From a virus: a DNA stretch of 17,705 nucleotides. Below are positions 1 to 16,657 of the stretch, one piece after another (position 1 is the first letter of the stretch; each line of letters starts with the position of its first letter). A program made the translations under genes and the position numbers. A model generated the notes under the pieces. The model did not search any database. It was not told the DNA's origin and saw nothing but the letters and a program-made list of their open reading frames with translations. Where the stretch lies: the UHGV virus genome UHGV-0090138; one strand, written 5' to 3'.

Positions 1-298
1 GGAGAACACCGGCAAGTCCCATAACCGCCATGAGGCGCGCCACTGTACATCTGGCCACCCTGATTCCTTCCCGTAACAACTGGCGCCAGACTTTACGCAC
101 ACCGTACACCTGATGATTTTCATCGTATACGCGCTGTATCTCTCTCTTCAGCCAGTCATCGCGCTGTGCATGTGCACTGCGTTTATCAGGATGATGTCTC
201 TGTTGCTGACAGTGGTAATACGTTGACGGGGCAATATGCAGTTCACTGCATACCGGTCCGACCCCGTACTGCTCACGCAGCTTATCCAGCAGTGGCAT
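1..298 (-). CDS. IS3-family transposase OrfB, N-terminal ~99 codons (continues beyond window start)
   Basis: ATG at 298..296 overlaps the OrfA stop (ATGA); frame stays open to position 1; translation [29 protein letters not shown]... matches IS629-type OrfB from memory. Confidence 0.7.
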   Translation of the reverse strand, partial: MPLLDKLREQYGVGPVCSELHIAPSTYYHCQQQRHHPDKRSAHAQRDDWLKREIQRVYDENHQVYGVRKVWRQLLREGIRVARCTVARLMAVMGLAGVL

Positions 299-624
299 CA
301 TTTTTTCCAGAGGCGGTCGAACTCCGCCTTCGCAAAATAAGCGGAAGCCTGGCGAAGGATATCGTTACTGCGGCGCAGTTCACGATTTTCACGTTCCAGC
401 TCTTTCAGACGCTGACGTTCAGCGGTGGTGAGCCCTCCATCACCGCCCCCGGTATCCCGCTCATGCTGGCGAACCCAGACACGCAGAGTCTCCGGCGTAC
501 AGCCAATCTTTGGGGCAATGGAACAAATTGCCGCCCACTGTGAGTCATATTCATCCTGACTTTCCAGAACCATACGGACTGCCCGTTGACGGACTTCGGG
601 GGAAAAACGAGTATTTTTAGTCAT
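298..624 (-). CDS. IS3-family transposase OrfA (HTH/leucine-zipper subunit), 108 aa
   Basis: ORF-track translation [57 protein letters not shown]...[34 protein letters not shown] recognised as IS629/IS1203 OrfA. Confidence 0.9.
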
Positions 625-649
625 CCTGTTTACCTCTTTCTCAGGAAGT

Positions 650-1024
650 TTAGTCTCCAGGATTCCCGGGGCGGTTCAGTTCAGCATCTGCTGTAAGTCT
701 TGGGCTTTCTCCATCGCCCATGCTGCTGGCTCCGGTCTTTGACTTTGCACAGGAGGCGGCGACTTGCAGCCGCTTACGCCCAGCAGAAACATCATCACGG
801 AGACTTTCGATAGTCGCGTTAGCATCAGCAAGCTCCTTTGTATATCTGGCATCGAGTTCTGCTACGTCACGTTGACGCTTCTGCATGTCAGCGATGATGG
901 ATGTGGCTTTGTCGCGCTGTTCTTTGTAGGTCATGGCGTTATCACGGTAATGATTAACAGCCCATGACAGGCAGACGATGATGCAGATAACCAGAGCGGA
1001 GATAATCGCGGTTACTCTGTTCAT
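650..1024 (-). pseudogene. Rz: Rz i-spanin, C-terminally truncated by the IS insertion (phage-derived codons 679..1024; last 9 codons and stop are IS sequence)
   Basis: [30 protein letters not shown]...YTKELADA... matches lambda-family Rz; ATG 1024 overlaps the endolysin stop (ATGA); frame runs into the IS terminus at 678 after ~115 of ~153 expected codons. Confidence 0.75.
676..825 (-). CDS. Rz1: Rz1 o-spanin lipoprotein embedded in Rz (+1 frame); its stop codon is supplied by the IS terminus, so probably truncated
   Basis: My translation [49 protein letters not shown]: signal peptide plus lipobox (VSGC) followed by a proline-rich mature segment, inside Rz; TGA at 678..676 lies in IS-derived sequence. 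Confidence 0.45.
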
Positions 1025-1518
1025 TGCTGACCCCACAAACAGATTTCACGCTCAATCTCACGACGAGTCATGAGACCTTTCCATTGCTTACCGCCAGCAT
1101 ATGTCCAGCGACGTAGCTGATCACATGCGCCTTTGATATCGCCCTGGTTTATTTTGCGAAGAAGCGTCGATGTTCTGAAATTGCCAGCACCCACGTTGTA
1201 AACGAATGAGTAAAGAGCGCCGCGCATTGTTTCCGGTATATCGACTTTGATGTACGGGTTAATTTGTCTGGCGACCGTGGCAAGGTCTTTATTCAGGAGG
1301 GCTTTGCATTCTGCTTTGGTATACGTTTTACCGAGCATGATGTCTTTTCCTGTATGCCCGTGACATACAGTCCATACACCAACAATATCTTTGTATGGTA
1401 TGTAGCTGACACCTTCCAGACCATCGTTACCACTTGGGCCAGTAATTAACACTGATGCTATAGCAATTGCTCCGCCACCAATAGCAGCAGCAACGGCTTT
1501 TCGTAATGATGGAGGCAT
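1021..1518 (-). CDS. R: SAR endolysin (phage-21-type lysozyme R), 165 aa
   Basis: N-terminal signal-anchor-release segment ([20 protein letters not shown]) followed by a lysozyme domain; overlaps the holin stop and Rz start as in lambdoid lysis cassettes. Confidence 0.9.
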
Positions 1519-1733
1519 TATTCACCTCTCGCAGCCTTGCGCTTATCTTCTTTAATCTTGAAATAAAGGTTTGTCAGGTACGTCAGCAGGCCAAATACCA
1601 GGCTACCCAGCACACCTATTGCTGCCCACTGTGAGGGCGTGACTTTATCGAGCAGCTGTAAAAACCAGTAACCGGCACTACCTGCTGAGGTGCCATAGGC
1701 GACACCCGTTGTTAACTTATCCATGGATTTCAT
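1518..1733 (-). CDS. S: Pinholin S (phage-21-type), dual-start MKSM motif, 71 aa
   Basis: [28 protein letters not shown]...[17 protein letters not shown] resembles S21 pinholin; start refined from the ORF-track start (1778) to the MKSM motif; RBS-like GAGGTGGGG upstream; stop overlaps the R start. Confidence 0.85.
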
Positions 1734-2321
1734 AACCCCACCTCGCAGACAAAGCGGGTGTAAATTGAGGGAATACAACGTATCGCAAAAAAGCAGAAAC
1801 GTAACAGACTCGGAGTCAGTGAATAACTCAGGTATTGAGTTATCAGCTAATATCGAGACTCAAAAAATGGAAAAACCAGCTCGACGGCGGGTTTAAGCTG
1901 TGTGACGAAGTAACCACTCTTAACAGCATAACCAATTTTTTACGTACGTAAACCACTGAATGATATTTATGAGAATGCTACCGAGTGTTCAAAACTCCAC
2001 CACAAATACATAAGAAAACCTCAACAAATAACCAATAAATAATTTCAGACGTTATTTTTAGTTGATTTAAATTAAACTGCCGAATTATAGAACCCCCATA
2101 AATAACAGCCATTAATATAAATTAGCTAATAGGTTTATTTTTGTTCAAATAAGAGCCATAAATAGGTTTCGATAGAAAAAGTTCAGATAAAAATAGAGAT
2201 CTACTTCACAAATTAAATGAGAAACTAAAACTTACATCTTGAAATAATCACATTGATTAGATGAATATTTATCGCGCAGTGACATCATTTTTTAATAATA
2301 GTTCAAAAAAAAGGGCTCACG

Positions 2322-3404
2322 ATGAAAAAATTAACAGTGGCAATTTCTGCTGTAGCTGCATCAGTACTGATGGCGATGTCTGCTCAGGCAGCTGAAATTT
2401 ATAATAAAGACAGTAACAAGCTGGATCTGTACGGGAAAGTTAATGCTAAGCACTACTTCTCCTCTAATGATGCAGATGATGGTGATACTACTTATGCCCG
2501 TCTTGGCTTCAAAGGTGAAACCCAAATCAACGATCAACTGACTGGTTTCGGTCAGTGGGAATATGAATTCAAAGGCAACCGCGCTGAATCTCAAGGTTCC
2601 TCCAAAGACAAAACCCGTCTTGCATTTGCAGGCCTGAAATTCGGTGACTACGGCTCAATCGATTACGGCCGTAACTACGGTGTAGCATACGACATCGGTG
2701 CGTGGACTGACGTTCTGCCAGAATTCGGTGGCGATACCTGGACCCAAACAGATGTATTCATGACTGGTCGCACCACAGGTGTTGCAACTTATCGTAACAA
2801 CGACTTCTTTGGTCTGGTTGATGGCCTGAACTTTGCAGCTCAGTATCAGGGCAAAAATGACCGAAATGAAGTAACTGAAGCTAATGGCGATGGTTTCGGT
2901 TTCTCAACTACTTATGAGTATGAAGGATTCGGCGTGGGTGCAACCTATGCTAAATCTGATCGCACTAATAATCAGGTTATCTACGGTAACAACGGTCTGA
3001 ATGCTTCTGGTCAAAATGCTGAAGTATGGGCAGCTGGTCTGAAATATGATGCGAACAACATCTATCTGGCCACCACCTATTCTGAAACCCAGAACATGAC
3101 TGTTTTTGGTAATAACCATATTGCCAACAAAGCACAAAACTTCGAAGCTGTTGCACAATATCAGTTCGACTTCGGCCTGCGTCCATCCGTTGCTTACCTG
3201 CATTCTAAAGGAAAAGACTTGGGTGTTTGGGGTGATCAGGACCTGGTTGAATATGTTGATGTAGGTGCAACCTATTACTTCAACAAAAATATGTCCACTT
3301 TTGTTGACTACAAAATCAACCTGATTGATAAGAGCGATTTCACGAAAGCATCTGGCGTTGCTACCGATGATATCGTTGCTGTAGGTATGGTTTACCAGTT
3401 CTAA
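2322..3404 (+). CDS. OmpC/OmpF-family outer-membrane porin (prophage moron, NmpC/Lc-like), 360 aa with signal peptide
   Basis: Signal peptide [30 protein letters not shown], porin motifs ([13 protein letters not shown]..., C-terminal ...VAVGMVYQF); on the strand opposite Q and the lysis genes, as for nmpC in DLP12. Confidence 0.85.
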
Positions 3405-3419
3405 TTTGATTACTAAAAG

Positions 3420-3500
3420 ATATGTTGTGGGAGGCTTTGCCTCCCCAACATATAAGTGGCTCCCTCAAGCCACTTCCTTTAGAAGCACAACCTTGCTTCT
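3420..3500. other. Cluster of three consecutive stem-loops just downstream of the porin stop
   Basis: Inverted repeats atatgttgtgggaggc/gcctccccaacatat (3420..3454), aagtggct/agccactt (3454..3475) and agaagca/tgcttct (3481..3500); none is followed by a clear U-run. Confidence 0.5.
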
Positions 3501-3540
3501 AACTATACAAACCTTCTGTTATATATTACCCTTTATTTTT

Positions 3541-3566
3541 GGGGGCGTTTCAACGCCCCATTTTTA
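3541..3566 (+). terminator. Rho-independent terminator (likely porin terminator)
   Basis: GC stem ggggcg-tttcaa-cgcccc followed by attttt on the plus strand. Confidence 0.6.
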
Positions 3567-3592
3567 ATAACTTTTAGTAAATAATTGGCGTA

Positions 3593-3976
3593 TTAATTAG
3601 AGTTATTAACAACGATATCCATCTCTAACCGGATATCTAATGCCATTAACATCCCTTCAATTATGCCCTCAGCCTTCTGTAACCTTTTCCCGATATAACC
3701 ATCAGAGCAGCAATGCTTACCTGCCAGTGACATGAATGTCATACCGACTACATAATAATCTACTAATAAATCGTGCAAATCGCTGTTGTTCTTTTTCAGA
3801 CGGGCCATGCACCCGCAAATGATCATCGCGTCATCGTCACAACATTGCGGGCGAGATTTTACTTTTGAAGTAATTAATCCCTTAAAACCGGCGGCAATGG
3901 ACGACCAGGTCACATCTTCATGATTATTAGCCGCCCACGCTCCCCAACGCTCAAGAACCATCTGAATATCACGCAT
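3593..3976 (-). CDS. Q: Late-gene antiterminator Q (QuuD-like), 127 aa
   Basis: [34 protein letters not shown]... recognised as DLP12-type Q; start refined from the ORF-track start (3991) to the MRDIQ methionine. Confidence 0.85.
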
Positions 3977-4061
3977 CAACTTACTCCACAAAAATCAGAC
4001 CAGAACGCCAATTACAAGCAAAAATCAACAAAACAGTATTAGTTGATTGTTATCTCTGACT

Positions 4062-4202
4062 TCATACTCCTGCTCCTGTCAGTGTTTTGGCGTAATTCTT
4101 CAGTATTCGGTAATCGGTCAAAACAGAACCGGGGAAACGATATAAGCGCAGGCGCACCCAGCGGCGGCGAAGACGCTCTGCCATATAAGACTCAAACATC
4201 AT
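4062..4202 (-). CDS. ylcG: Small protein YlcG-like, 46 aa
   Basis: My translation [46 protein letters not shown]; start overlaps the rusA stop; position between rusA and Q matches DLP12 gene order; identity from memory only. Confidence 0.45.
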
Positions 4203-5812: not shown

Positions 5813-6249
5813 GCAGCCCGATCTCCCCATCTCGCTTTCCACTCCAGAGCCAGTCTCGCTTCGTCTGACCACTTAACGCCACGCTCTGTACCGAATGCCT
5901 GTATAAGCTCTAATAGCTCCGCAAATTCGCCTACACGCATCCTGCTGGTTGACTGGCCTATTACCACAAAGCCATTCCCGGCAAGGTTAGGAACAACATC
6001 CTGCTGCTTTAATGCTGCGGTAAACACACACTTCCAGCTTTCTGCATCCAGCCAGCGACCATGCCATTCAACCTGACGAGAGACGTCACCTAAGCAGGCC
6101 CATAGCTTCCTGTTTTGGTCTAAGCTGCGGTTGCGTTCCTGAATGGTTACTACGATTGGTTTGGTTGGGTCTGGAAGGATTTGCTGTACTGCGTGAATAG
6201 CGTTTTGCTGATGTGCTGGAGATCGAATTTCAAAGGTTAGTTTTTTCAT
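5809..6249 (-). CDS. ninB: NinB (Orf-family recombination mediator), 146 aa
   Basis: MKKLTFEIRSPAHQQNAIHAVQQILPDPTKPIVVTIQERNRSLDQNRKLWACLGD... matches lambda NinB; GGAG RBS. Confidence 0.92.
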   Translation of the reverse strand: MKKLTFEIRSPAHQQNAIHAVQQILPDPTKPIVVTIQERNRSLDQNRKLWACLGDVSRQVEWHGRWLDAESWKCVFTAALKQQDVVPNLAGNGFVVIGQSTSRMRVGEFAELLELIQAFGTERGVKWSDEARLALEWKARWGDRAA

Positions 6250-6322
6250 GACTTCCCTCTCCCCCAAATAAAAAGGCCTGCGATTACCAGCAGGCCTGTT
6301 ATTAGCTCAGTAATGTAGATGG

Positions 6323-6613
6323 TCATCTTTTAACTCCATATACCGCCAATACCCGTTTCATCGCGGCACTCTGGCGACACTCCTTAAAAATCAGGTTCGT
6401 GCTCATCTTTCCTTCCCGTTCTTCCCTAGTAGCAAACCGGTAATACACCGTTCGCCAGACCTTACCTTCGATAACCAGAAGACCTGCCCGTGCCATTTTA
6501 GCCGCGGCCTGATTTATGCTGGTTACTGTTGCGCCTGTTAGCGCGGCAACGTCCGGCGCACAGAAGCTATTATGCGTCCCCAGGTAATGAATAATTGCCT
6601 CTTTGCCCGTCAT
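6323..6613 (-). CDS. ren: Ren, 96 aa
   Basis: MTGKEAIIHYLGTHNSFCAPDVAALTGATVTSINQAAAKMARAGLLVIEGKVWRTVYYRF... matches lambda Ren. Confidence 0.92.
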   Translation of the reverse strand: MTGKEAIIHYLGTHNSFCAPDVAALTGATVTSINQAAAKMARAGLLVIEGKVWRTVYYRFATREEREGKMSTNLIFKECRQSAAMKRVLAVYGVKR

Positions 6614-7311
6614 ACACTTGCTCCTTTCAGTCCGAACTTAGCTTTAATTTCTGCGATCTTCGCCAGAGCCTGTGCACGATTTAGAGGTCTACCGCCCATA
6701 ACAGGAAGTTGTTTTACTGGTTCAGGTATCGTCTCACCACGGTTAATTCGCGCTGTCATACAGGTCAGTTCATCGGCAGCCTTGCGCCGTAATTCCGCAT
6801 CAGTAAGCGCATTGGCCCGCATGTTCTGATACAGGTTGGTAACCAGCCAGTAGTGCGCGTTTGATTTCCACGGATAAGACTCCGCATCCGGATACAGGCC
6901 TCGCTTCCGGCAATACTCGTAAACCATATCAACCAGCTCGCTGACGTTTGGCAGTCCGGCGATAACGGATGCTTCTTCCCGGCACCATGCAACAAACTGC
7001 CCGGGTGATGGCAGAAATGGTCGATTCTGCCGACGGGCTACGCGCATTCCTGCGTTAACCTGTTCCATCGTGGTGATCCCGTTTTCCCGAAAAGCCAGAA
7101 CCCACTGGCGACGGATTTCGTTCACTTCGTTCTGGTCACGGTTAGCCAGGCTCGCCGGGAAAGTTGCCAGTAACTGGCTGAACACACCGTTGATGATCTG
7201 CGCTACCTGCTGTACCTGCGGCTTTTCGTCGTACTGTTCCGGCATGTTGTTGGCGATCCGACGCATCTGCTCACGGTCAAAGTTAACCATCTGTGCGGCG
7301 ATGTTTTTCAT
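6610..7311 (-). CDS. P: Replication protein P (DnaB loader), 233 aa
   Basis: MKNIAAQMVNFDREQMRRIANNMPEQYDEKPQVQQVAQIINGVFSQLLATFPASLANRDQ... matches lambda P. Confidence 0.95.
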   Translation of the reverse strand: MKNIAAQMVNFDREQMRRIANNMPEQYDEKPQVQQVAQIINGVFSQLLATFPASLANRDQNEVNEIRRQWVLAFRENGITTMEQVNAGMRVARRQNRPFLPSPGQFVAWCREEASVIAGLPNVSELVDMVYEYCRKRGLYPDAESYPWKSNAHYWLVTNLYQNMRANALTDAELRRKAADELTCMTARINRGETIPEPVKQLPVMGGRPLNRAQALAKIAEIKAKFGLKGASV

Positions 7312-8207
7312 AGATCCACCCCGTAAATCCAGTCAGTGTTTGTCAGGTCGAGTTTTGGTTTTCCGGCTGTCACGCCAGCCTGTTGCTTGTTACGGTTGAT
7401 TTCGAGCTGGGTCCACTTGTCGCGGAGTTTGGCCGGACTCAGCACGTTACCGGACCAGAAGTTGTCCTGGCAGGCCCAGCGGAAAAGCACACACATATCG
7501 CGGTGGTTACGTCCGTCACGTTCACGCATCAGGCGGATATCGTTAGCCCACCCAGCAAAATTCGGTTTTCTGGCTGATGGCGCGATGGTCTTCACCATGT
7601 CAAACATCCACTCTGCGGCGGTCAGGTCTTCTGCTGTTCCCCACTTACTGCCGCTCTGAATTGCAGCATCCGGTTTAACCACAGAAAGATCGTTTTCTGG
7701 CTGGTCAGAGGATTCGCCAGAATTCTCGGACGAATAATCTTTTCTTTTTTCTTTTGTAATAGTGTCTTTTGTGTCCCCCTGTTTTGAGGGATAGCAATCC
7801 CCCAATTTGAGGGATGTTTTATCCCTCGTTTTAGGGGATTTTCCCTCGTTTTGAGGGATACACCATTCTGAGATGTTTTTATTTGGTCCAAACATGCCGC
7901 CTTGCTGCTTGATAATATTCATTCTGACGAGTTCTAACTTGGCTTCATTGCACCGTTTGACAGGTAACTTTGTAATCTCGCTAAGTTGAGAATCGGTGAT
8001 TCTGTCCATTGGTTTATTCCACCCATAGGTTTTACGCAGAATGGCAAGCAGCACTTTAAACTGTCGCTTGGTCAGATCTGCGCCTGAATAAGCCTCAAGC
8101 AGCATATTTGATAGTCTGGCGTAACCATCATCGAGATCTGCCACATTACGCTCCTGTTTGGCAAAGTTACCTCTGCAGAAGTTGAGTATTTTGGCTGTAT
8201 TTGTCAT
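7308..8207 (-). CDS. O: Replication initiator O, 299 aa
   Basis: MTNTAKILNFCRGNFAKQERNVADLDDGYARLSNMLLEAYSGADLTKRQFKVLLAILRKTYGWNKPMDRITDSQ... matches lambda O; contains the ori iterons. Confidence 0.95.
   Translation of the reverse strand: MTNTAKILNFCRGNFAKQERNVADLDDGYARLSNMLLEAYSGADLTKRQFKVLLAILRKTYGWNKPMDRITDSQLSEITKLPVKRCNEAKLELVRMNIIKQQGGMFGPNKNISEWCIPQNEGKSPKTRDKTSLKLGDCYPSKQGDTKDTITKEKRKDYSSENSGESSDQPENDLSVVKPDAAIQSGSKWGTAEDLTAAEWMFDMVKTIAPSARKPNFAGWANDIRLMRERDGRNHRDMCVLFRWACQDNFWSGNVLSPAKLRDKWTQLEINRNKQQAGVTAGKPKLDLTNTDWIYGVDL
7735..7860. repeat. Lambda-type replication origin: four ~18-bp iterons plus adjacent AT-rich region, inside O
   Basis: Four tandem copies of tccctc-N-gaggga-type iterons (about 7774..7791, 7798..7814, 7822..7838, 7842..7858) with AT-rich tttcttttttcttttgtaat beside them, as in ori-lambda. 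Confidence 0.9.
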
Positions 8208-8239
8208 AATGCCCCCTGTAGATTGATCCAGTAATTCCC

Positions 8240-8536
8240 TCAGAATTGCATATCAATTTGCTTAAAATCCTCGGTGGCGGCCGGGGATTTTTTCTTTGTG
8301 ATTTCAGCAAGCGCATACTTAAAAGCCCTGCTAATCGGACTGATGTCTGATGCCATTCCGAAAGCACACAAGACCGAAGCAATAAATCTCCAGTCCGTTC
8401 TGCTTATCTTCGATTCATGACAGCCAATCATCTTTGCCAGACCGCGCTGGGTAAGCGTTGATAGGTTGATGAGTAAATCTGTTTCTGCGCGATCAACGTC
8501 ACGCTGTGATAGTTTGCTGTAACTTGTTCGTTCCAT
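8240..8536 (-). CDS. cII: CII-family transcriptional activator, 98 aa
   Basis: Same size and position as lambda CII; C-terminus ...KKKSPAATEDFKQIDMQF parallels lambda CII ...KKRPAATERSEQIQMEF; divergent N-terminal DNA-binding part. Confidence 0.75.
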   Translation of the reverse strand: MERTSYSKLSQRDVDRAETDLLINLSTLTQRGLAKMIGCHESKISRTDWRFIASVLCAFGMASDISPISRAFKYALAEITKKKSPAATEDFKQIDMQF

Positions 8537-8575
8537 TTCTTAAGATTTCCAATAGTGAATAGTTAGTTGAAAGGT

Positions 8576-8591
8576 ATGCGTGGAAACGCAT
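8576..8591 (-). terminator. Candidate tR1-like hairpin between nutR and cII
   Basis: Palindrome atgcgt-ggaa-acgcat in the cro-cII spacer; no strong U-run, so weak call. Confidence 0.3.
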
Positions 8592-8620
8592 ATGGCCTTA
8601 GTTGGTCAGATATCTTGGGA

Positions 8621-8667
8621 CTCGCTTTTCAGCGACGTAGGACGAATGTCCGTTATTACAAAGAGCG
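8621..8667 (-). promoter_or_regulatory. nutR: boxA (CGCTCTTTG) plus boxB hairpin (TCGCTGAAAAGCGA)
   Basis: On the minus strand downstream of cro: boxA-like CGCTCTTTG, then ~25 nt later a short stem with GAAAA-containing loop; near-identical arrangement at nutL. Confidence 0.7.
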
Positions 8668-8677
8668 GCTCCGCTTA

Positions 8678-8893
8678 TTAAGCAGCTTTGTGCTCCGGCG
8701 GGAACACATCATCAAGACTTACTTTTGCGCCTAACTTGTTTAGACACGCAACAAGAGCACGGCATGTTTTAAGGTCTGGGAAGCGACGACCAGATTCCCA
8801 ATGTCCGATAGCTCCCTGTGTGCATCCAACTGCCTTAGCAAGTGTTGTTTGAGAGATATTCAGTGACTCTCGATATTTTCGTAGGTTGCTCAT
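8678..8893 (-). CDS. cro: Cro-like repressor (HTH, XRE-type), 71 aa
   Basis: HTH motif [23 protein letters not shown]; first gene of the minus-strand operon, divergent from cI; GGAGGG RBS. Confidence 0.85.
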
Positions 8894-9004
8894 ATGCCCT
8901 CCATAGTAACCACAAATAAAAAATACAATATGTACTCATTAAACACAAGCAAAAAATACACATTGTGCATGGATGGTTCCAGTACAGAGCGTAATAATAA
9001 GGAC
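8894..9004. promoter_or_regulatory. OR operator / PR-PRM divergent promoter region
   Basis: 111-bp cro-cI spacer with three related ~15-bp operator-like sites (8923..8937, 8955..8969, 8981..8995) resembling AGTACATAT(C/T)GTA(C/T)T; the same motif recurs at OL. Confidence 0.6.
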
Positions 9005-9664
9005 ATGAAAATGAAATGGTATGAACTGGCTAGATCCAGAATGAAAGAGCTCGGCATAACTCAAGAGAAGTTAGCCGAAGAGCTAGGTATGACGCAGGGT
9101 GGAATTGGACACTGGTTGCGCGGATCTCGTCATCCATCTCTTAGTGATATTGGTGTGGTGTTTAAATACCTTGGTATTGATAACATATCATTCAACCACG
9201 ACGGGACATTTTCACCTGTTGGCGAATACTCATCGGCCCCAGTTAAAAAACAATATGAGTACCCTGTTTTTTCTCATGTTCAGGCTGGGATGTTCTCTCC
9301 AGAACTCAGAACCTTTACCAAAGGCGATGCGGAGAGATTGGTAAGCACAACCAAAAAAGCCAGTGACTCTGCATTCTGGCTTGAGGTTGAAGGTAACTCA
9401 ATGACCGCACCAACAGGTTCCAAACCTAGTTTTCCTGACGGGATGTTAATTCTGGTTGACCCAGAGCAAGCTGTTGAGCCCGGCGATTTCTGCATAGCCA
9501 GACTTGGTGGTGATGAGTTTACCTTCAAGAAACTGATCAGGGATAGCGGTCAGGTGTTTCTACAGCCACTAAACCCACAATACCCAATGATCCCATGCAA
9601 TGAGAGTTGTTCCGTTGTGGGGAAAGTTATCGCTAGTCAGTGGCCTGAAGAGACGTTTGGGTAG
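9005..9664 (+). CDS. cI: CI repressor (N-terminal HTH + C-terminal LexA-like S24 autopeptidase domain), ~219 aa
   Basis: [26 protein letters not shown]; C-terminal [10 protein letters not shown]... and ...FTFKKL (Ser/Lys dyad); the ORF-track start 8894 is rejected because it would leave no operator region; start at ATG 9005 or 9011. Confidence 0.88.
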
Positions 9665-9852
9665 AGGCGAAGCAGCAATTGGTTTGATTTGGTATTGCTA
9701 TTTTTTCTCTAAAGTTGTTGAGCATTTTTCCGTTAGATAAAAATAGACGCAAATTTACATGATTTTTTTGTGCTGTATTGCTTGCTGAAAGCTAGGTTTT
9801 GCGTAAACTTCAATTACTCAAATTAGAGTAAACAACATATAGGACACCCCAC

Positions 9853-10074
9853 ATGAAAAAATCTGCAAAGCACTTTTTCAGCGCTATGGGCTCTATCCTT
9901 GACCTTTGCCCAGCAGGTAGCTACAGCGAGTATCATTCAAATGCTACAGACATCGACCTTATCAACTCAGATTGGGTTAAGGTAGGTAGTTACGTTAGAG
10001 ACGCTGTAACTGATAATGAGCAGAAAAAAATCCCAAAGAAAGCTTCAAACCGCCGCCCCGAGAAATCTTGTTAA
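9853..10074 (+). CDS. Hypothetical small hydrophilic protein, 73 aa (first gene of accessory locus in the rexAB position)
   Basis: ORF-track frame with AGGA RBS 8 nt upstream of the ATG; no recognisable motif; 3' end overlaps the next ORF by 59 nt across an A7 tract. Confidence 0.5.
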   Translation: MKKSAKHFFSAMGSILDLCPAGSYSEYHSNATDIDLINSDWVKVGSYVRDAVTDNEQKKIPKKASNRRPEKSC

Positions 10075-10549
10075 CCAACCAACTCCGTTAGGGCGAGTTC
10101 AAGACGGTAAAACCGAACTGCTTATAAATGAGGTCGCAAAGAACCCTCAAGTTCTTGAGCGCCTCATGGACAGGCCAGATCTAGCTGGCATCATGATGCA
10201 GGTGACTCACACTAGATCAGGGCCACTCCCAGACGCTGACGAATTAGCTAAGTACGAAAGAATATCTCCAGGATTCGCTCGCGAAATAATGGACATGGCT
10301 AAGGCTGAGCAAAAACACAGACACGAGTATTACAAAGCAGGACAGAGGGGAGCAATTTGGCGAGATCGACTCGGACAGATCTTTGCGATGACTTCTGTCT
10401 TTGTTTTCGCAGGAATTGCTTACAAGATGATTCAGCACGAGGCTTATGGCTGGGCTACCGGGCTTCTTGGTGCTGAGTTAGTTGCTTTAACTAGCGTGTT
10501 TATAATTGGAAGAAGAGACAAACCGAATCCAAAGCAAACTAAAAAATGA
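10016..10549 (+). CDS. Small membrane protein, 177 aa (possibly DUF2335-like): basic N-terminus, conserved central motif, two C-terminal transmembrane helices
   Basis: Motif PLPDADELAKYERISPGFAREIMDMAKAEQKHRHEY followed by hydrophobic IFAMTSVFVFAGIAY and WATGLLGAELVALTSVFIIG and basic tail RRDKPNPKQTKK; no convincing RBS before ATG 10016; DUF2335 assignment is from memory. Confidence 0.6.
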   Translation: MSRKKSQRKLQTAAPRNLVNQPTPLGRVQDGKTELLINEVAKNPQVLERLMDRPDLAGIMMQVTHTRSGPLPDADELAKYERISPGFAREIMDMAKAEQKHRHEYYKAGQRGAIWRDRLGQIFAMTSVFVFAGIAYKMIQHEAYGWATGLLGAELVALTSVFIIGRRDKPNPKQTKK

Positions 10550-10554
10550 GACAA

Positions 10555-10580
10555 CCCGGCTTCCGCGCCGGGTTTTCTTT
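10555..10580 (+). terminator. Rho-independent terminator ending the cI-accessory transcript
   Basis: cccggc-ttccgc-gccggg stem-loop followed by ttttcttt, 6 nt after the ORF stop. Confidence 0.75.
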
Positions 10581-10714
10581 GCCTAACGCCCCCAAAAAAA
10601 CACATAACCAATTGTATTTATTTTAAAATTAATAGATACAACTCACTAAACAACGCAATTCTGATCTCTCCCTACATCGCCGAGGCAATACACCCACGCT
10701 AAAAAACAACACTA

Positions 10715-10795
10715 TTAAATACAAAGCGTTGTAAAAAACCACCCCTCAATAGAACAAATCGTATTGACCAGATAAAGTACATATCGTACTATTTA
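10715..10795 (+). promoter_or_regulatory. PL promoter with OL operators
   Basis: -35 TTGACC (10765..10770), 17-bp spacer, -10 TACTAT (10788..10793); operator-like inverted repeats AGTACATATCGTACT (10777..10791, over the spacer/-10) and TACAAAGCGTTGTA (10720..10733). Confidence 0.65.
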
Positions 10796-10838
10796 ATCAT
10801 CAGCAGGACGCTGGAAGCCAAATGGAACAGACTGGCAG

Positions 10839-10884
10839 GCTCTTTAAACAACGTCGAACACTCGACTACGTGGCTGAAAAGCCA
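10839..10884 (+). promoter_or_regulatory. nutL: boxA (GCTCTTTA) plus boxB hairpin (GGCTGAAAAGCC)
   Basis: Between PL and N; same boxA/boxB sequences and spacing as nutR. Confidence 0.7.
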
Positions 10885-10982
10885 GACCACCCAACCACAT
10901 AAGCTGTGGGATGCAATGCCGAAGCAACCGGCTCAGGAGGAGCTTCGAGATTGCATCGCCAAAGTTTATTCGGGAGGAATCT

Positions 10983-11255
10983 ATGTCCAGAAAAACAGAA
11001 TTTAAAGGCACCGCAGCTTCTCGCCGTAGAGCTCGTCGTGCAAACCTGCAAAGTCAGGAGGCGATCAGCTCTGACAAACTACACAGGCCAACCCCTTCAC
11101 GAGTGGTCTTACAATGCAAACGCAAACCAGTAATGAGAGCAGAAGTAATAACACTGACAACGTTGACCAGAAAATATGAAGGCTCAACTTGTCTTCCAAA
11201 TGTAGCCATTTACGCGGCAGGCTACAGGAAATCCAAACAGCTGACAGCAAGATGA
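10983..11255 (+). CDS. N: N antiterminator (short arginine-rich-motif type, H-19B/933W-like), 90 aa
   Basis: N-terminal ARM MSRKTEFKGTAASRRRARRANLQS and C-terminus ...CLPNVAIYAAGYRKSKQLTAR; GGGAGG RBS 5 nt upstream; start refined from the ORF-track start 10911. Confidence 0.8.
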   Translation: MSRKTEFKGTAASRRRARRANLQSQEAISSDKLHRPTPSRVVLQCKRKPVMRAEVITLTTLTRKYEGSTCLPNVAIYAAGYRKSKQLTAR

Positions 11256-11313
11256 CTTGTGTTGGTCGCCAGAAAATGAAATTAGGCAGCAAACCACTTA
11301 TTTGAGGTGAGAT

Positions 11314-11400
11314 ATGGAAGAAGAATTTGAAGAGTTCGAAGAGCATCCTCAGGATGTGATGGAACAATACCAGGACTATCCGTATGACTGCGACTATTGA
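11314..11400 (+). CDS. Small acidic ORF (lambda orf28-like), 28 aa
   Basis: GAGGTG RBS then ATG; translation MEEEFEEFEEHPQDVMEQYQDYPYDCDY; same length and position as the small ORF between N and ral in lambda (from memory). Confidence 0.4.
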   Translation: MEEEFEEFEEHPQDVMEQYQDYPYDCDY

Positions 11401-11481
11401 TAAGAATCAATGGTGTGGGCAATACGAACGACGGCAATGATTGTCAGAGAACTTGGTAAACAGAACAACAAAGCTGCCTGA
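11384..11481 (+). pseudogene. ral: ral (restriction alleviation) remnant with internal deletion/frameshift
   Basis: Reads MTATIDKNQWCGQ then stops after 18 codons; the Ral C-terminus AMIVRELGKQNNKAA is present downstream in another frame; ~30 central codons appear missing relative to lambda Ral as I remember it (66 aa). Confidence 0.45.
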
Positions 11482-11617
11482 TAGTGGCCTTTATTTTTGG
11501 CATAAATAACAGAATAAACACTGCACTGTGTATTCATTCCAACGAGTGAATACACGGAGCAATGTCGCTCGTAACTAAACAGGAGCCGACTTGTTCTGAT
11601 TATTGGAAATCTTCTTT

Positions 11618-11644
11618 GCCCTCCAGTGTGAGGGCGATTTTTTA
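11618..11644 (+). terminator. Rho-independent terminator upstream of ea10
   Basis: gccctc-cagtgt-gagggc stem-loop followed by gatttttta. Confidence 0.6.
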
Positions 11645-11663
11645 TCTGTGAGGATATGAATAG

Positions 11664-12032
11664 ATGTCAAACATCAAAAAATACATCATTAATTACGACT
11701 GGAAAGCATCAATAGAAATTGAAATCGACCATGACGTAATGACAGAGGAAAAACTTCACCAGATTAATAATTTCTGGTCAGACTCTGAATACCGACTCAA
11801 TAAACACGGCTCTGTATTAAATGCTGTATTAATCATGCTGGCGCAACATGCTCTGCTTATAGCAATTTCAAGCGACTTAAATGCATATGGTGTTGTGTGT
11901 GAGTTCGACTGGAATGATGGAAATGGTCAGGAAGGATGGCCTCCAATGGATGGTAGCGAAGGAATAAGAATTACCGATATCGATACATCAGGAATATTTG
12001 ATCCAGATGATATGACTATCAAAGCCGCCTGA
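11664..12032 (+). CDS. ea10: Ea10-like early protein, 122 aa
   Basis: ORF-track frame with GAGGA RBS; same size and position (between ral and cIII) as lambda ea10; sequence identity from memory is uncertain. Confidence 0.6.
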   Translation: MSNIKKYIINYDWKASIEIEIDHDVMTEEKLHQINNFWSDSEYRLNKHGSVLNAVLIMLAQHALLIAISSDLNAYGVVCEFDWNDGNGQEGWPPMDGSEGIRITDIDTSGIFDPDDMTIKAA

Positions 12033-12104
12033 GCGCGGCGTTACCGCATACCAATTACGCTTCACTCGAGGCGTTTTTCGTTATGTATAAATAAGGAGCA
12101 CACC

Positions 12105-12269
12105 ATGCAATATGCCATTGCAGGGTGGCCTGTTGCTGGCTGCCCTTCCGAATCTTTACTTGAACGAATCACCCGTAAATTACGTGACGGATGGAAACGC
12201 CTTATCGACATACTTAATCAGCCAGGAGTCCCGAAAAATGGATCAAACAATTATGGCTATCCAGACTAA
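12105..12269 (+). CDS. cIII: CIII (FtsH inhibitor stabilising CII), 54 aa
   Basis: My translation [54 protein letters not shown] matches lambda CIII; AAGGAG RBS 6 nt upstream; below the ORF-track size cutoff. Confidence 0.9.
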   Translation: MQYAIAGWPVAGCPSESLLERITRKLRDGWKRLIDILNQPGVPKNGSNNYGYPD

Positions 12270-12381
12270 ATTCACTATCGCCACTTTTATTGGCGATGAA
12301 AAGATGTTTCGTGAGGCCGTCGACGCTTATAAAAAATGGATATTAATACAGAAACTGAGATCAAGCAAAAGCATTCACTAA
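12238..12381 (+). CDS. kil: Kil (FtsZ-targeting host-killing protein), 47 aa
   Basis: [47 protein letters not shown] matches lambda Kil; overlaps the cIII 3' end in another frame; the ORF-track N-terminal extension from 12112 is rejected. Confidence 0.85.
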
Positions 12382-12456
12382 CCCCCTTTCCTGTTTTCCT
12401 AATCAGCCTGGCATTTCGCGGGCGATATTTTCACAGCCATTTTCAGGAGTTCAGCC

Positions 12457-12753
12457 ATGAACGCTTATTACATTCAGGATCGTCTTGAGGCTCAGAGCTG
12501 GGCGCGTCACTACCAGCAGATCGCCCGTGAAGAGAAAGAGGCAGAACTGGCAGACGACATGGAAAAAGGCCTGCCCCAGCACCTGTTTGAATCGCTATGC
12601 ATCGATCATTTGCAACGCCACGGGGCCAGCAAAAAAGCCATTACCCGTGCGTTTGATGACGATGTTGAGTTTCAGGAGCGCATAGCAGAACACATCCGGT
12701 ACATGGTTGAAACCATTGCTCACCACCAGGTTGATATTGATTCAGAGGTATAA
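12457..12753 (+). CDS. gam: Gam (RecBCD inhibitor), short GamS form, 98 aa
   Basis: [60 protein letters not shown]... matches lambda Gam. Confidence 0.95.
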
Positions 12754-12758
12754 AACGG

Positions 12759-13544
12759 ATGAGTACAGCACTCGCAACGCTGGCTGGGAAGCTGGCTGAA
12801 CGTGTCGGCATGGATTCTGTCGACCCACAGGAACTGATCACCACTCTTCGCCAGACGGCATTTAAAGGTGATGCCAGCGATGCGCAGTTCATCGCATTAC
12901 TGATCGTTGCCAACCAGTACGGCCTTAATCCGTGGACGAAAGAAATTTACGCCTTTCCTGATAAGCAGAATGGCATCGTTCCGGTGGTGAGCGTTGATGG
13001 CTGGTCCCGCATCATCAATGAAAACCAGCAGTTTGATGGCATGGACTTTGAGCAGGACAATGAATCCTGTACATGCCGGATTTACCGCAAGGACCGTAAT
13101 CATCCGATCTGCGTTACCGAGTGGATGGATGAATGCCGCCGCGAACCATTCAAAACCCGCGAAGGCAGAGAAATCACCGGACCGTGGCAGTCGCATCCCA
13201 AACGGATGTTACGGCATAAAGCCATGATTCAGTGTGCCCGTCTGGCCTTCGGATTTGCTGGTATCTATGACAAGGATGAAGCCGAGCGCATTGTCGAAAA
13301 TACTGCATACACTGCAGAACGTCAGCCGGAACGCGACATCACTCCGGTTAACGATGAAACCATGCAGGAGATTAACACTCTGCTGATCGCCCTGGATAAA
13401 ACATGGGATGACGACTTATTGCTGCTCTGTTCCCAGATATTTCGCCGCGACATTCGCGCATCGTCAGAACTGACACAGGCCGAAGCAGTGAAAGCTCTTG
13501 GATTCCTGAAACAGAAAGCCACTGAGCAGAAGGTGGCAGCATGA
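12759..13544 (+). CDS. bet: Bet (Red-beta single-strand annealing protein), 261 aa
   Basis: [66 protein letters not shown]... matches lambda Bet. Confidence 0.97.
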
Positions 13545-14221
13545 CACCGGACATTATCCTGCAGCGTACCGGGATCGACGTGAGAGCTGTCGAACAGGGG
13601 GATGATGCATGGCACAAATTACGGCTCGGCGTCATCACCACTTCAGAAGTTCACAACGTGATAGCAAAGCCCCGATCAGGAAAGAAGTGGCCTGACATGA
13701 AAATGTCCTACTTCCACACCCTGCTAGCTGAGGTTTGCACCGGTGTGGCTCCGGAAGTTAACGCTAAAGCGCTGGCCTGGGGAAAACAGTACGAGAACGA
13801 CGCCAGAACCCTGTTTGAGTTCACTTCCGGCGTAAATGTTATTGAATCCCCGATCATCTATCGCGACGAAAGTATGCGCACCGCCTGCTCTCCCGATGGT
13901 TTATGCAGTGACGGCAATGGCCTTGAGCTGAAATGCCCGTTTACCTCCCGGGATTTCATGAAATTCCGGCTCGGTGGTTTCGAGGCCATAAAGTCGGCTT
14001 ACATGGCCCAGGTGCAGTACAGCATGTGGGTGACGCGAAAAGATGCCTGGTACTTTGCCAACTATGACCCGCGTATGAAGCGTGAAGGCCTGCATTATGT
14101 CGTGATTGAGCGGAATGAAAAGTATATAGCGAGTTTTGACGAGATGGTGCCGGAGTTCATCGAAAAAATGGACGAGGCACTGGCTGAAATTGGTTTTGTA
14201 TTTGGGGAGCAATGGCGATGA
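13541..14221 (+). CDS. exo: Exo (lambda exonuclease, Red-alpha), 226 aa
   Basis: [65 protein letters not shown]... matches lambda Exo; ATGA overlap with the bet stop. Confidence 0.97.
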
Positions 14222-14400
14222 AACATCCTCACGATAATATCCGCGTAGGCACGATCACTTTCGTCTACTCCGTTACAAAGCGAGGCTGGGTATTTACCGG
14301 CCTTTCTGTTATCCGAAATCCCCTGAAAGCACAGCGGCTGGCTGAGGAGATAAATAATAAACGGGGAGCTGTATGCACAAAGCATCTCCCGTTGAGTTAA
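14218..14400 (+). CDS. Lambda orf60a-like protein, 60 aa
   Basis: [60 protein letters not shown]; ATG overlaps the exo stop (ATGA). Confidence 0.8.
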
Positions 14401-14564
14401 GAACGAGTATCGAGATGGCACATAGCCTCGCTCAAATTGGAGTCAGGTTTGTGCCAATACCAGTAGAAACAGACGAAGAATTTCATACGTTAGCCGCATC
14501 CCTTTCACAAAAGCTGGAAATGATGGTGGCGAAAGCAGAAGCAGATGAGAGAGACCAGGTATGA
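14373..14564 (+). CDS. Lambda orf63-like protein, 63 aa
   Basis: [63 protein letters not shown]. Confidence 0.8.
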   Translation: MHKASPVELRTSIEMAHSLAQIGVRFVPIPVETDEEFHTLAASLSQKLEMMVAKAEADERDQV

Positions 14565-14644
14565 CAACCACGGAATGCATTTTTCTGGCAGCGGGCTTCA
14601 TATTCTGTGTGCTTATGCTTGCCGACATGGGACTTGTTCAATGA
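14561..14644 (+). CDS. Tiny hydrophobic ORF, 27 aa, translationally coupled on both sides
   Basis: My translation MTTTECIFLAAGFIFCVLMLADMGLVQ; ATG overlaps the orf63 stop and its TGA overlaps the next ATG (two ATGA junctions). Confidence 0.35.
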   Translation: MTTTECIFLAAGFIFCVLMLADMGLVQ

Positions 14645-14856
14645 CACCTCAGCAGGAAAACGCCCTTCGCAGCATTGCCCGTCAGGCTAATTCTGAAATC
14701 AAAAAAGCCAGACAGCAGTTTCCGGATAAAAACGTCGATGACATTTGCCGTAGCGTACTGAAGAAGCACCGCGAAACGGTAACGCTGATGGGATTCACAC
14801 CGACTCATTTAAGCCTGGCAATCGGCATGTTAAACGGCGTCTTTAAGGAACGATGA
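14641..14856 (+). CDS. Lambda orf61-like protein, 71 aa
   Basis: MTPQQENALRSIARQANSEIKKARQQFPDKNVDDICRSVLKKHRETVTLMGFTPTHLSLAIGMLNGVFKER; start refined from the ORF-track start 14545 to the internal ATG. Confidence 0.7.
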   Translation: MTPQQENALRSIARQANSEIKKARQQFPDKNVDDICRSVLKKHRETVTLMGFTPTHLSLAIGMLNGVFKER

Positions 14857-14879
14857 ACATGAAAAGCAAAATCATCAGG

Positions 14880-14900
14880 GAGCTACAGGCTCCTTTTTTA
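14880..14900 (+). terminator. Weak candidate intrinsic terminator after orf61
   Basis: Short GC stem ggagc-tacag-gctcc followed by tttttt. Confidence 0.35.
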
Positions 14901-14954
14901 TTATTCGCATTCACCCTCAAGCGTATTAACCAACAATTCAGGGATTAATGGAAG

Positions 14955-15176
14955 ATGGCAGACATCATTGATTCAGCATCAGAAATTGAAGAATTACAGC
15001 GCAACACAGCAATAAAAATGCGCCGCCTGAACCACCAGGCTATATCTGCCACTCATTGTTGTGAGTGTGGCGATCCGATAGATGAACGAAGACGCCTGGT
15101 CGTTCAGGGTTGTCGGACTTGTGCAAGTTGCCAGGAGGATCTGGAGCTTATCAGTAAACAGAGAGGTTCGAAGTGA
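14955..15176 (+). CDS. TraR/DksA-family C4 zinc-finger protein (lambda orf73-like), 73 aa
   Basis: Cys-x2-Cys ... Cys-x2-Cys (CCECGDPIDERRRLVVQGCRTCASC), size and motif typical of phage TraR-like proteins. Confidence 0.8.
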   Translation: MADIIDSASEIEELQRNTAIKMRRLNHQAISATHCCECGDPIDERRRLVVQGCRTCASCQEDLELISKQRGSK

Positions 15177-15386
15177 GCGAAATTAACTAGAAGCCAAAGA
15201 TAAAATCATCGCTGAGCAGGAGAAAATCGCTAACGGAGAAAAGACAGTAAGTCAGTATATGAAAACCGCATGATATCATCAGATAAAAATCGGTCGTAAA
15301 GCGAAATATTAATACCAGAACAAACGAGTCGAGGTAAATTATATTACCTCGATAAATTAACTAAAACTTGCCCGCTATATACTATA

Positions 15387-15989
15387 TCATTCAGTATCAT
15401 CACGCGCGGTCTGTGCATATGTCACTACCGCACCTAATATATTAATTTTCTTTTCAACATAGATAATATTATCGTACTCATAATTGCCATACGGATAGCA
15501 AATGCGAATATTCTCATGTAGTTCGGGGTCATCCACCTCAGCTCCAGAACAACTTTTTGAACTACCGGAAGTATACCGATACGGTGCAACATAAGACGAT
15601 GTCTCTCCAGGCAAAAAATAAGTTAGTGTCGTAAGGGGTATAATCAGAAAAAATCCAGCAAATATGCACATCCCTGCATAAACCTTAAGGTATGCTGACA
15701 GACTCTTCCAGCCTCTTTGTTTTACTATCCCCTTCTTAACCCAAAACAGAGATAACAGAAAAGCTATTCCCATGCTAAACAGAATGTAATAGTGGGATAT
15801 ACTCTGATTAAGAAACGTGACCCTGTAGATATCTGCCCGCCACCAGAAGAAAAGGAAAATAAAGATCAGCCCTGAAACTGTCATGCAAATCAAATAAGGA
15901 TACGAATCTTTTTTCATGTTTAGCGCCCATAAAATTTTTCCTGACCCGGACAAATTTACCATCCATTTTTTGCGCAGAAAATAGCTCAT
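15387..15989 (-). CDS. Hypothetical integral membrane protein (3-4 predicted TM helices plus ~80-aa C-terminal soluble domain), up to 200 aa; AT-rich moron on the opposite strand
   Basis: ORF-track frame; hydrophobic segments LICMTVSGLIFIFLFFWW, YYILFSMGIAFLLSLFWV, VYAGMCIFAGFFLIIPLTTLTYF; AT-rich codon usage unlike flanking lambda-like genes; start ambiguous (Met 1, 10 or 25), no clear SD. Confidence 0.6.
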   Translation of the reverse strand: MSYFLRKKWMVNLSGSGKILWALNMKKDSYPYLICMTVSGLIFIFLFFWWRADIYRVTFLNQSISHYYILFSMGIAFLLSLFWVKKGIVKQRGWKSLSAYLKVYAGMCIFAGFFLIIPLTTLTYFLPGETSSYVAPYRYTSGSSKSCSGAEVDDPELHENIRICYPYGNYEYDNIIYVEKKINILGAVVTYAQTARDDTE

Positions 15990-16231
15990 TACTTACTGCA
16001 CAATAATACACAAAATTGCGTAAATTTTTTGCATGGATTTTAGCTCTTTCAGCCGAAATTTAAGGGGTAAATAGCATTTCCTAAAAGCAACTGCACCAAC
16101 CCAACAGAATGGGCTACCGCTTACGTTGAGAGCAAAAAAGTGTATAGCAGCAATGAACAGCATCCTCGCACTGACGAGGATTTCTTTTATCTGAACTCGC
16201 TACGGCGGGTTTTGTTTTATGGAGATGATAA

Positions 16232-16399
16232 ATGCACTTCCGAGTCACAGGTGAATGGAATGGAGAACCATTCAACAGAGTTATCGAAGCCGAGAACATC
16301 AGCGACTGCTATGACCACTGGATGCTGTGGGCGCAGATAGCACATGCAGACGTAACCAATATTCGAATTGAAGAACTGAAAGAACACCAAGCCGCCTGA
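16232..16399 (+). CDS. Small protein (orf55-like) upstream of xis, 55 aa
   Basis: GGAG RBS 7 nt upstream of ATG; my translation MHFRVTGEWNGEPFNRVIEAENISDCYDHWMLWAQIAHADVTNIRIEELKEHQAA; stop codon sits inside the terminator hairpin. Confidence 0.5.
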   Translation: MHFRVTGEWNGEPFNRVIEAENISDCYDHWMLWAQIAHADVTNIRIEELKEHQAA

Positions 16400-16412
16400 T
16401 GGCGGTTTTTTC
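16389..16412 (+). terminator. Rho-independent terminator between the orf55-like ORF and xis
   Basis: gccgcc-tgat-ggcgg stem-loop followed by tttttt. Confidence 0.65.
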
Positions 16413-16438
16413 TTGCGTGTAATTGCGGAGACTTTGCG

Positions 16439-16657
16439 ATGTACTTGACACTTCAGGAGTGGAACGCACGCCAGCGACGCCCAAGAAGCCTTGAAACAGT
16501 TCGTCGATGGGTACGCGAGTGCAGGATATTCCCTCCTCCGGTTAAGGATGGAAGAGAGTATCTGTTCCACGAATCAGCGGTAAAGGTTGACTTAAATCGA
16601 CCAGTAACAGGTAGCCTTTTGAAGAGGATCAGAAATGGGAAGAAGGCGAAGTCATGA
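16439..16657 (+). CDS. xis: Excisionase Xis, 72 aa
   Basis: MYLTLQEWNARQRRPRSLETVRRWVRECRIFPPPVKDGREYLFHESAVKVDLNRPVTGSLLKRIRNGKKAKS matches lambda Xis. Confidence 0.97.
   Translation: MYLTLQEWNARQRRPRSLETVRRWVRECRIFPPPVKDGREYLFHESAVKVDLNRPVTGSLLKRIRNGKKAKS

Follow-up and report, generated by a model that had tools for sequence, protein, structure and literature searches.

An IS629/IS1203-type insertion that very probably truncated both spanin genes of a putative lambda-like Escherichia coli prophage

The window considered here, the whole 17,705-nucleotide stretch of the viral genome UHGV-0090138, begins inside an insertion sequence (IS) whose outer end adjoins the lysis genes of what appears to be a lambda-like prophage of Escherichia coli. 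The spanin genes Rz and Rz1, one embedded in the other and both read on the minus strand, are the genes in contact with the IS, and both reading frames run out of phage DNA and end on stop codons within the element. Very probably, an element of the IS629/IS1203 type transposed into the 3' third of Rz and truncated the two spanins.

The i-spanin gene Rz occupies positions 650..1024 of the minus strand and encodes 124 amino acids (aa), as delimited by tblastn, the Pfam profile PF03245 and alignment. It begins at 1024 with an ATG that shares an ATGA with the endolysin stop codon; the GTG at 1036, taken as the right-hand limit in the original prediction, is merely the start of the mechanical open reading frame (ORF). 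Phage DNA supplies codons 1-115, and the junction falls inside codon 116. That residues 116-117 (L, N) agree with the intact protein is coincidental, and the tail encoded by the IS adds seven foreign residues (RPGNPGD) before the stop codon at 650-652. The uninterrupted allele is that of Escherichia phage ev099 (NC_049953), which is 100% identical to the window over positions 679-1520 (842 bp). Its Rz gene runs for 92 bases past the junction point and gives a protein of 145 aa, with an Rz1 of 61 aa embedded in the +1 frame. In tblastn, the ev099 Rz is matched at 100% identity over residues 1-117 of its 145, and the 28 C-terminal residues (118-145) are absent from the window; with them go the greater part of the second coiled coil and the cysteine at the C-terminus. 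The comparison with ev099 places the cut at codon 115/116, where the original prediction had put it at about 115 codons; the expected length of about 153 codons given there is that of lambda, and has to be corrected to 145 for this allele. The PF03245 profile is matched with E = 6.8e-25 over positions 6-97 of 126, against 7-125 in ev099. What remains retains the N-terminal transmembrane helix and the periplasmic coiled-coil domain (PF03245) of an i-spanin, and its N-terminal 30 residues are nearly invariant in the alignment with lambda.

The o-spanin gene Rz1 (676..825, minus strand, identified by PF06085 and alignment) lies in the +1 frame of Rz and keeps 49 of its 61 codons. Its stop codon, the TGA at 678-676, consists of the first three bases of the IS, as had been proposed from the letters alone. 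The signal peptide and the lipobox VSGC are intact, with Cys20 aligned to C20 of lambda, and the gene has the features expected of an o-spanin: a lipobox cysteine, a proline-rich mature region and a position embedded in the +1 frame of Rz. The final 12 residues (SIITVSEVESTG) are lost. The PF06085 profile is matched with E = 7.9e-14 over positions 1-32 of 41, against 1-41 in ev099, and a comparison with PHROGs agrees with Pfam in that both the Rz and the Rz1 profiles are cut off. The pair in the window thus lacks the full-length periplasmic C-termini of an Rz-Rz1 complex. Because the IS landed where Rz1 is embedded in Rz, a single event cut both spanin subunits. We regard the two genes as spanin homologues by descent and, judging from their sequence, as presumable pseudogenes.

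The IS fills positions 1..678 of the window on the minus strand. When aligned to complete IS3-family copies of E. coli, this segment matches from end to end at 98.5% identity (record L008, 1201-1878; E = 0), and it corresponds to the IRL-proximal 678 bp of a 1,310-bp element. The complete copy in L008 (569-1878, 1,310 bp) is bounded by 25-bp inverted repeats beginning TGAACCGCCCCGGG; these are imperfect, 92% complementary over 25 nt and of the 5'-TG...CA-3' type. Only one of the two ends lies inside the window: the terminal inverted repeat (IRL) at 654..678, which reads TGAACCGCCCCGGGAATCCTGGAGA on the minus strand and equals the L008 arm 1854-1878. The last base of the IS is 678 and phage DNA starts at 679. 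An IS3-family terminus exactly at this position had been predicted, and both the alignment to complete copies and the match of the repeat leave the boundary where it had been placed. Related copies are present in most complete E. coli genomes. The copies that RefSeq labels as 'IS3-like element IS1203 family' are 96-97% identical to that of the window (97.05% for the one in L019). In ISfinder practice, isoforms share at least 95% nucleotide identity with the named element. By these comparisons the element is assigned to the IS629/IS1203 type of the IS3 family.

The coding content fits this assignment. The gene orfA (298..624, minus strand) encodes a 108-aa helix-turn-helix protein, the N-terminal transposase product (PF01527 HTH_Tnp_1, E = 1.8e-12), and this exact protein is found on at least 1,000 contigs. 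The programmed -1 frameshift region is marked by an ALIL frameshift pseudoknot at 227..343 of the minus strand (Rfam RF01497, 122 bits, model positions 1-117 of 117), within which falls the A6 run at the orfA stop codon, as read from the sequence. The N-terminal part of orfB follows at 2..301 on the same strand (PF13276 HTH_21, E = 3e-18). The contig, and hence the window, ends within the IS, and the DDE catalytic part of orfB would fall past the window start; complete relatives in L020, L026 and L028 carry the corresponding rve domains. The element is oriented in the same direction as the phage late operon, and on its strand orfA starts (622-624) 25 nt downstream of the stop codon of the truncated Rz. 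We therefore expect polymerase modified by the late antiterminator Q to read through the IS, such that Q-dependent late transcription would enter the transposase genes upon induction.

The element would have arrived by the usual copy-out/paste-in route of the IS3 family, making a 3-bp duplication of its target (GTT). The predicted duplication lies at 679..681 (GTT on the plus strand, AAC in the orientation of the genes), where a single copy is visible, and is proposed from relatives: complete copies of the same type are flanked by 3-bp duplications in L019 (GTT), L020 (TAA, in cro), L026 (GTG, in exo) and L039 (TAC, in Rz). For IS629, target duplications of 3-4 bp have been reported (PMC3271280). 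A simple insertion would leave a left junction of the form ...CGGAGACGGTAATAATTGAGTT|TGAACCGCCCCGGGTTTCC and retain the rest of the phage, so that the order would be R, the IS, then ...GAGACGGTAATAATTGAGTT|TGAACCGCCCC and after it the KilA-N and terminase genes. In that case the genome of ev099 (47,224 bp) together with the IS (1,310 bp) would be about as long as that of lambda (48,502 bp), and packaging would probably not be limiting.

The likely consequence for lysis can be judged from the mutational analysis of the lambda spanins, to which those of the window are 62% (Rz) and 43% (Rz1) identical. By alignment, the cut in Rz falls at about lambda residue 126, which removes approximately residues 127-153, that is, the greater part of coiled coil CC2 (121-150) and the cysteine at the C-terminus. 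In lambda, Rz nonsense mutations at 34 positions of the periplasmic domain, as well as engineered stops at 151 and 152, caused a lysis defect, and only R153 was dispensable (Cahill et al. 2017, PMC5295617). The same study found Rz C152S to be tolerated on the sole condition that the C29 disulphide of Rz1 is kept. The Rz1 allele of the window has no second cysteine; hence the lost C-terminal cysteine of Rz was probably the sole distal disulphide, and so was probably needed. The cut in Rz1 is equivalent to a lambda G52X mutation. In lambda, Rz1 W46X is defective, as are the missense changes L50P, L50R and I54N, and S55X is functional (Cahill et al. 2017, PMC5295617). By analogy with these mutants, we have high confidence that the truncated Rz would be non-functional and consider that the truncated Rz1 probably is as well, which points strongly to a spanin-null, lysis-defective phenotype. 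Upon induction, the pinholin should still trigger, the putative signal-anchor-release (SAR) endolysin should still degrade the wall and the cell should die. The Rz/Rz1 bridge could not form, however, and the inner and outer membranes would stay unfused, with cells rounding up as spheres that keep their virions as long as no shear or destabilisation acts on the outer membrane.

Several observations weigh against a simple transposition that ended spanin function. None of 5,426 complete E. coli genomes contains the junction of the window, nor do the GTDB species representatives, IMG/VR or the JGI metagenomes, and a relaxed pattern for it has no match in IMG/VR or among the GTDB representatives. 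In the collections searched this particular junction is new; the kind of event, IS629/IS1203 entering lambdoid prophages, is very well known. Searches did not turn up the other end of the IS, its target duplication or the remaining 92 bp of Rz, and the predicted left junction (GAGACGGTAATAATTGA, 0-8 nt, then TGAACCGCCCCGGG) has no match in IMG/VR or JGI metagenomes. When this left junction was assembled in silico, no frame yielded a start-codon ORF across the Rz remainder, so that protein look-ups cannot reach it; none of nine guessed edge fragments of it was present in the protein collection. On the functional side, the cut in Rz1 falls between the defective W46X and the tolerated S55X, such that Rz1 taken alone is not proven dead, and the lambda data are transferred to an Rz allele of only 62% identity. 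In E. coli genomes with a matching Rz region the median number of such places is two, and a co-induced prophage could supply spanins in trans.

The junction itself might be thought an assembly chimera of a phage contig and an unrelated IS, because the metagenome contig has low coverage (6.3 according to the record name) and ends in a repeat. Yet contigs from five independent assemblies (ENA, Logan) are 100% identical to the window across the junction, and the exact 124-aa chimeric Rz is present on 13 contigs. All five break inside the IS, the four besides the window's own contig (ENA ERZ1741640 NODE_304, of which the window is the reverse complement) doing so after 30-54 nt; short-read assemblies break at repeats. 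The similarity across the junction amounts to just 5 nt (GTTCA|GTTCA), far below any assembler k-mer. Since the join lies at the canonical IS tip, is identical in five assemblies and shares only these 5 nt, we deem a chimera very unlikely. That Rz and Rz1 are natural short alleles, functional and ending at this point, is hardly credible at all. Both frames are merely open to a stop codon, which such alleles would also be, but the IS supplies their last codons and stops, ev099 matches perfectly as far as 679 and continues from there, both Pfam profiles are cut off, and in lambda even the stops at 151 and 152 abolish Rz function. Nor do relatives end here, as the original prediction would have required for its own dismissal: at least 74 complete E. 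coli records carry the full Rz region at 99% identity or more and, like the ev099 allele, continue beyond the junction.

A more serious possibility, which we nevertheless do not favor, is that the IS marks the scar of an IS-mediated deletion or of a recombination between two copies, with the Rz remainder and the head and tail genes gone or moved. This would refine rather than replace the interpretation: the element would then be a prophage remnant, and the truncation of the spanins holds either way. It is consistent with the contig stopping within the IS, with an IS629-type copy in AP042519 (L038) that lies 1 nt from the same site, lacks a target duplication and has the ral/Nmad5 early region instead of Rz on its far flank, and with the sister prophage L028, where an IS629-type copy adjoins a 2-kb deletion. 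In O157 genomes, moreover, just 21 of 47 IS629 sites had kept a duplication (Rump et al. 2011, PMC3271280). On the other hand, clean insertions with 3-bp duplications are equally easy to find (L019, L020, L026, and L039 within Rz), and everything visible in 17 kb of the prophage is intact, which argues against an old, heavily decayed remnant. The caution in the original prediction, that structural genes might be displaced or deleted, has a real, if minority, chance of being justified. Finally, the truncated spanins might be harmless in practice, either because another lambdoid prophage supplies Rz/Rz1, as the median of two matching places would allow, or because natural shear makes spanins dispensable; the spanin requirement in lambda is conditional on stabilisation of the outer membrane, as the original prediction had also implied. 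We find this unlikely: the late genes of other prophages need their own Q and their own induction, and no second spanin pair can be shown. Transposition into Rz with loss of both spanins thus stays our preferred account.

A separate set of candidates was rejected. Two groups of 'partial' Rz proteins in NCBI drafts, P0008 (residues 1-115) and P0031 (residues 116-145), might have represented the two sides of an insertion. The P0031 contigs come from phages of many unrelated types, lack IS bases and begin at AACTCAATT, ACTCAATT or CTCAATT, and these starts lie 19-21 nt upstream of a cluster of single-nucleotide polymorphisms. The breaks appear to reflect a fork in the assembly graph, at k = 21, between co-resident prophages. 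Many NCBI drafts (starts in L040-L049, ends in L031-L034) likewise break within 2 nt of the same Rz position without IS bases. Given the fork explanation, 'partial' proteins with a shared terminal residue cannot count as evidence of an insertion.

The 3' third of Rz has been hit by IS629-type elements repeatedly: we found three independent insertions there (window 674-683; L035 3700-3720 and L038 3078-4387; L039 2147-3456). The junction reads GCTGAAC|TGAACC in the window and GCTGAA|TGAACC in another Rz allele and cassette, where it lies 1 nt away and the IS has the opposite orientation; the third lies 69 nt downstream. In all three the TGA of the IS tip provides the stop codon of a truncated spanin frame, that of Rz1 in the window (676-678) and that of Rz in the others (L036, ~2044-2046; L039, 2147-2149). 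The target GCTGAAC resembles the IS tip TGAACC and may be a local hot spot; published work describes no sequence-specific target for IS629. A broader, speculative and rather unlikely reading would join these points: the conserved Leu-Asn codons of Rz1 (GCTGAAC) would imitate the IS629 tip (TGAACC) and so attract insertions preferentially, the spanin genes would be a recurrent point at which virion release is lost in IS629-rich E. coli lineages, and Q-antiterminated late transcription would couple a burst of transposase to induction.

Comparison with known systems places the window among familiar cases. In O157 genomes, 62% of IS629 copies sit in prophages (Rump et al. 2011, PMC3271280). The IS629/IS1203 elements in lambdoid prophages of O157 and other Shiga toxin-producing E. 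coli (STEC) resemble that of the window in their 1,310 bp, 25-bp repeats, orfA/orfB with pseudoknot and 96-98.5% identity. In the O157 strain 28RC1 a copy lies just downstream of Rz and bor, whereas in the window it is inside Rz/Rz1. Close parallels are the RefSeq genomes AP042519 (OkiPb01684) and AP042673 (OkiPb01711), where an IS629-type element also cuts the 3' third of Rz and the TGA of the IS tip serves as stop. AP042519, with its junction 1 nt away, differs from the window in IS orientation, Rz allele and lysis cassette, as well as in its missing duplication and early-region far flank. AP042673 differs in being cut 69 nt further downstream, with a clean TAC duplication, and its Rz loses only the last few codons. 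The lambda mutants RzQ100am and Rz1W38am, and those of Cahill et al. (2017), share with the window the families PF03245/PF06085, the embedded architecture and a C-terminal periplasmic truncation, with lysis halted at the outer membrane as the phenotype to be expected, but the lesion of the window is an IS that hits both genes and leaves Rz with a foreign tail of seven residues. Lambda also has an S105/R cassette, whereas in the window a putative pinholin/SAR-endolysin pair precedes the spanins. A literature search returned nothing relevant on IS629 and spanins, on interrupted spanins or on ev099.

The remainder of the lysis cassette is intact, in line with what had been noted of a phage-21-type holin and endolysin upstream of the spanins. 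The endolysin (1021..1518, minus strand, 165 aa, R21 type) matches PF00959 over the full profile (E = 1.3e-45) and is 100% identical to that of ev099. A Gly/Ala-rich N-terminal segment, putatively of the SAR kind, and the residues Glu35, Asp44 and Thr50 were read from its sequence. The S21-type holin (1518..1733, minus strand, 71 aa) starts with MKSM, giving Met1 and Met4, matches PF04971 'Bacteriophage P21 holin S' (E = 2e-35, profile 1-63 of 64) and is also 100% identical to the ev099 protein. The late antiterminator Q (3593..3976, minus strand, 127 aa) is intact, identified by PF06530 on an identical contig and 100% identical to ev099 Q; it drives transcription of S, R and Rz and, presumably, onward into the IS. 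A scan of positions 1-4100 for promoters and terminators gave nothing above shuffled expectation. An intact OmpC/OmpD-like porin of 360 aa (2322-3404, plus strand), 100% identical to the ev099 'porin OmpD', is encoded on the other strand between Q and the holin. It is a moron of the lysogenic-conversion type, presumably comparable to nmpC of DLP12. In the cryptic prophage DLP12 of E. coli K-12, the modules are Q, the nmpC porin on the opposite strand and essD/rrrD/rzpD, with an IS5 in the porin and intact lysis genes. The window has the same order of modules (Q, porin, S21-type holin, R21-type endolysin, Rz/Rz1) and likewise an IS in the module, but in the window the porin is intact and the spanins are hit.

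All ev099 proteins of the modules common to the window have full-length matches there, at 89-100% identity, with Rz as the sole exception; the set includes int, xis, exo, bet, gam, kil, O, P, ren, the nin genes, RusA, Q, porin, holin and endolysin. The integrase is identical to ones adjoining ybhC, the lambda attachment site, in many E. coli genomes, and it is for this reason that we speak of a prophage, as the window itself includes no host DNA. Mosaic blocks relative to ev099 lie at 8302-11512 and 15189-16150. The region of repressor, cro and N is of another immunity type than that of ev099, with a match only in the C-terminal peptidase half of the repressor (95.6% DNA identity). The mechanical ORFs of cro (8678-8893, minus strand) and the repressor (8894-9664, plus strand) abut without a gap, and the true repressor start is probably ~75 nt downstream of the mechanical one, as called in L020 and L024 (231 aa). 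Four sister prophages at the lambda attachment site (L020, L021, L026, L028) are ~99.3% identical to positions 5921-17705 of the window. They are riddled with IS (IS629-type in cro and exo, IS21-type in ninB, IS1 near gam, one IS-adjacent 2-kb deletion), and the strains that carry them have a different late region, with LpxR and another Q.

Accessory genes occupy two further places. Between the repressor and N, the position of rex in lambda, a 73-aa ORF overlaps one for a 177-aa DUF2335 membrane protein (9853-10549, plus strand). The DUF2335 protein belongs to phrog_3996, of the category 'moron', and the exact protein occurs in 2,078 collection blocks, in phages with differing neighbour modules; the gene of this region may serve in superinfection exclusion. 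In the b-region, a 200-aa ORF (15387-15989, minus strand) lies antisense to the early-left operon in place of the LprI and Ea22 genes of ev099. It falls in phrog_1416 (unknown function), has a 176-aa form in the sister prophages, and no Pfam family is on record for the identical product in related loci. Neither accessory region had a PADLOC match. The lambda cIII thermoregulator RNA element is present at 12092-12150 of the plus strand (Rfam RF01804, 88.5 bits, full model).

Much of this is otherwise routine decay of a prophage driven by IS and opens no new question. What is mildly notable is that two independent insertions lie 1 nt apart at a tip-like site, that the stop at the IS tip is repeated, and that transposase genes stand in the path of late transcription. 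The locus also provides an example of how one insertion can disable two embedded genes, with the TGA of the IS tip as a ready-made stop codon. The prophage lineage, represented in several gut-type metagenome assemblies, has a lysis cassette that is complete by gene count, and yet normal release of particles is probably impossible for it. This bears on predictions of prophage inducibility and of phage-mediated gene transfer.

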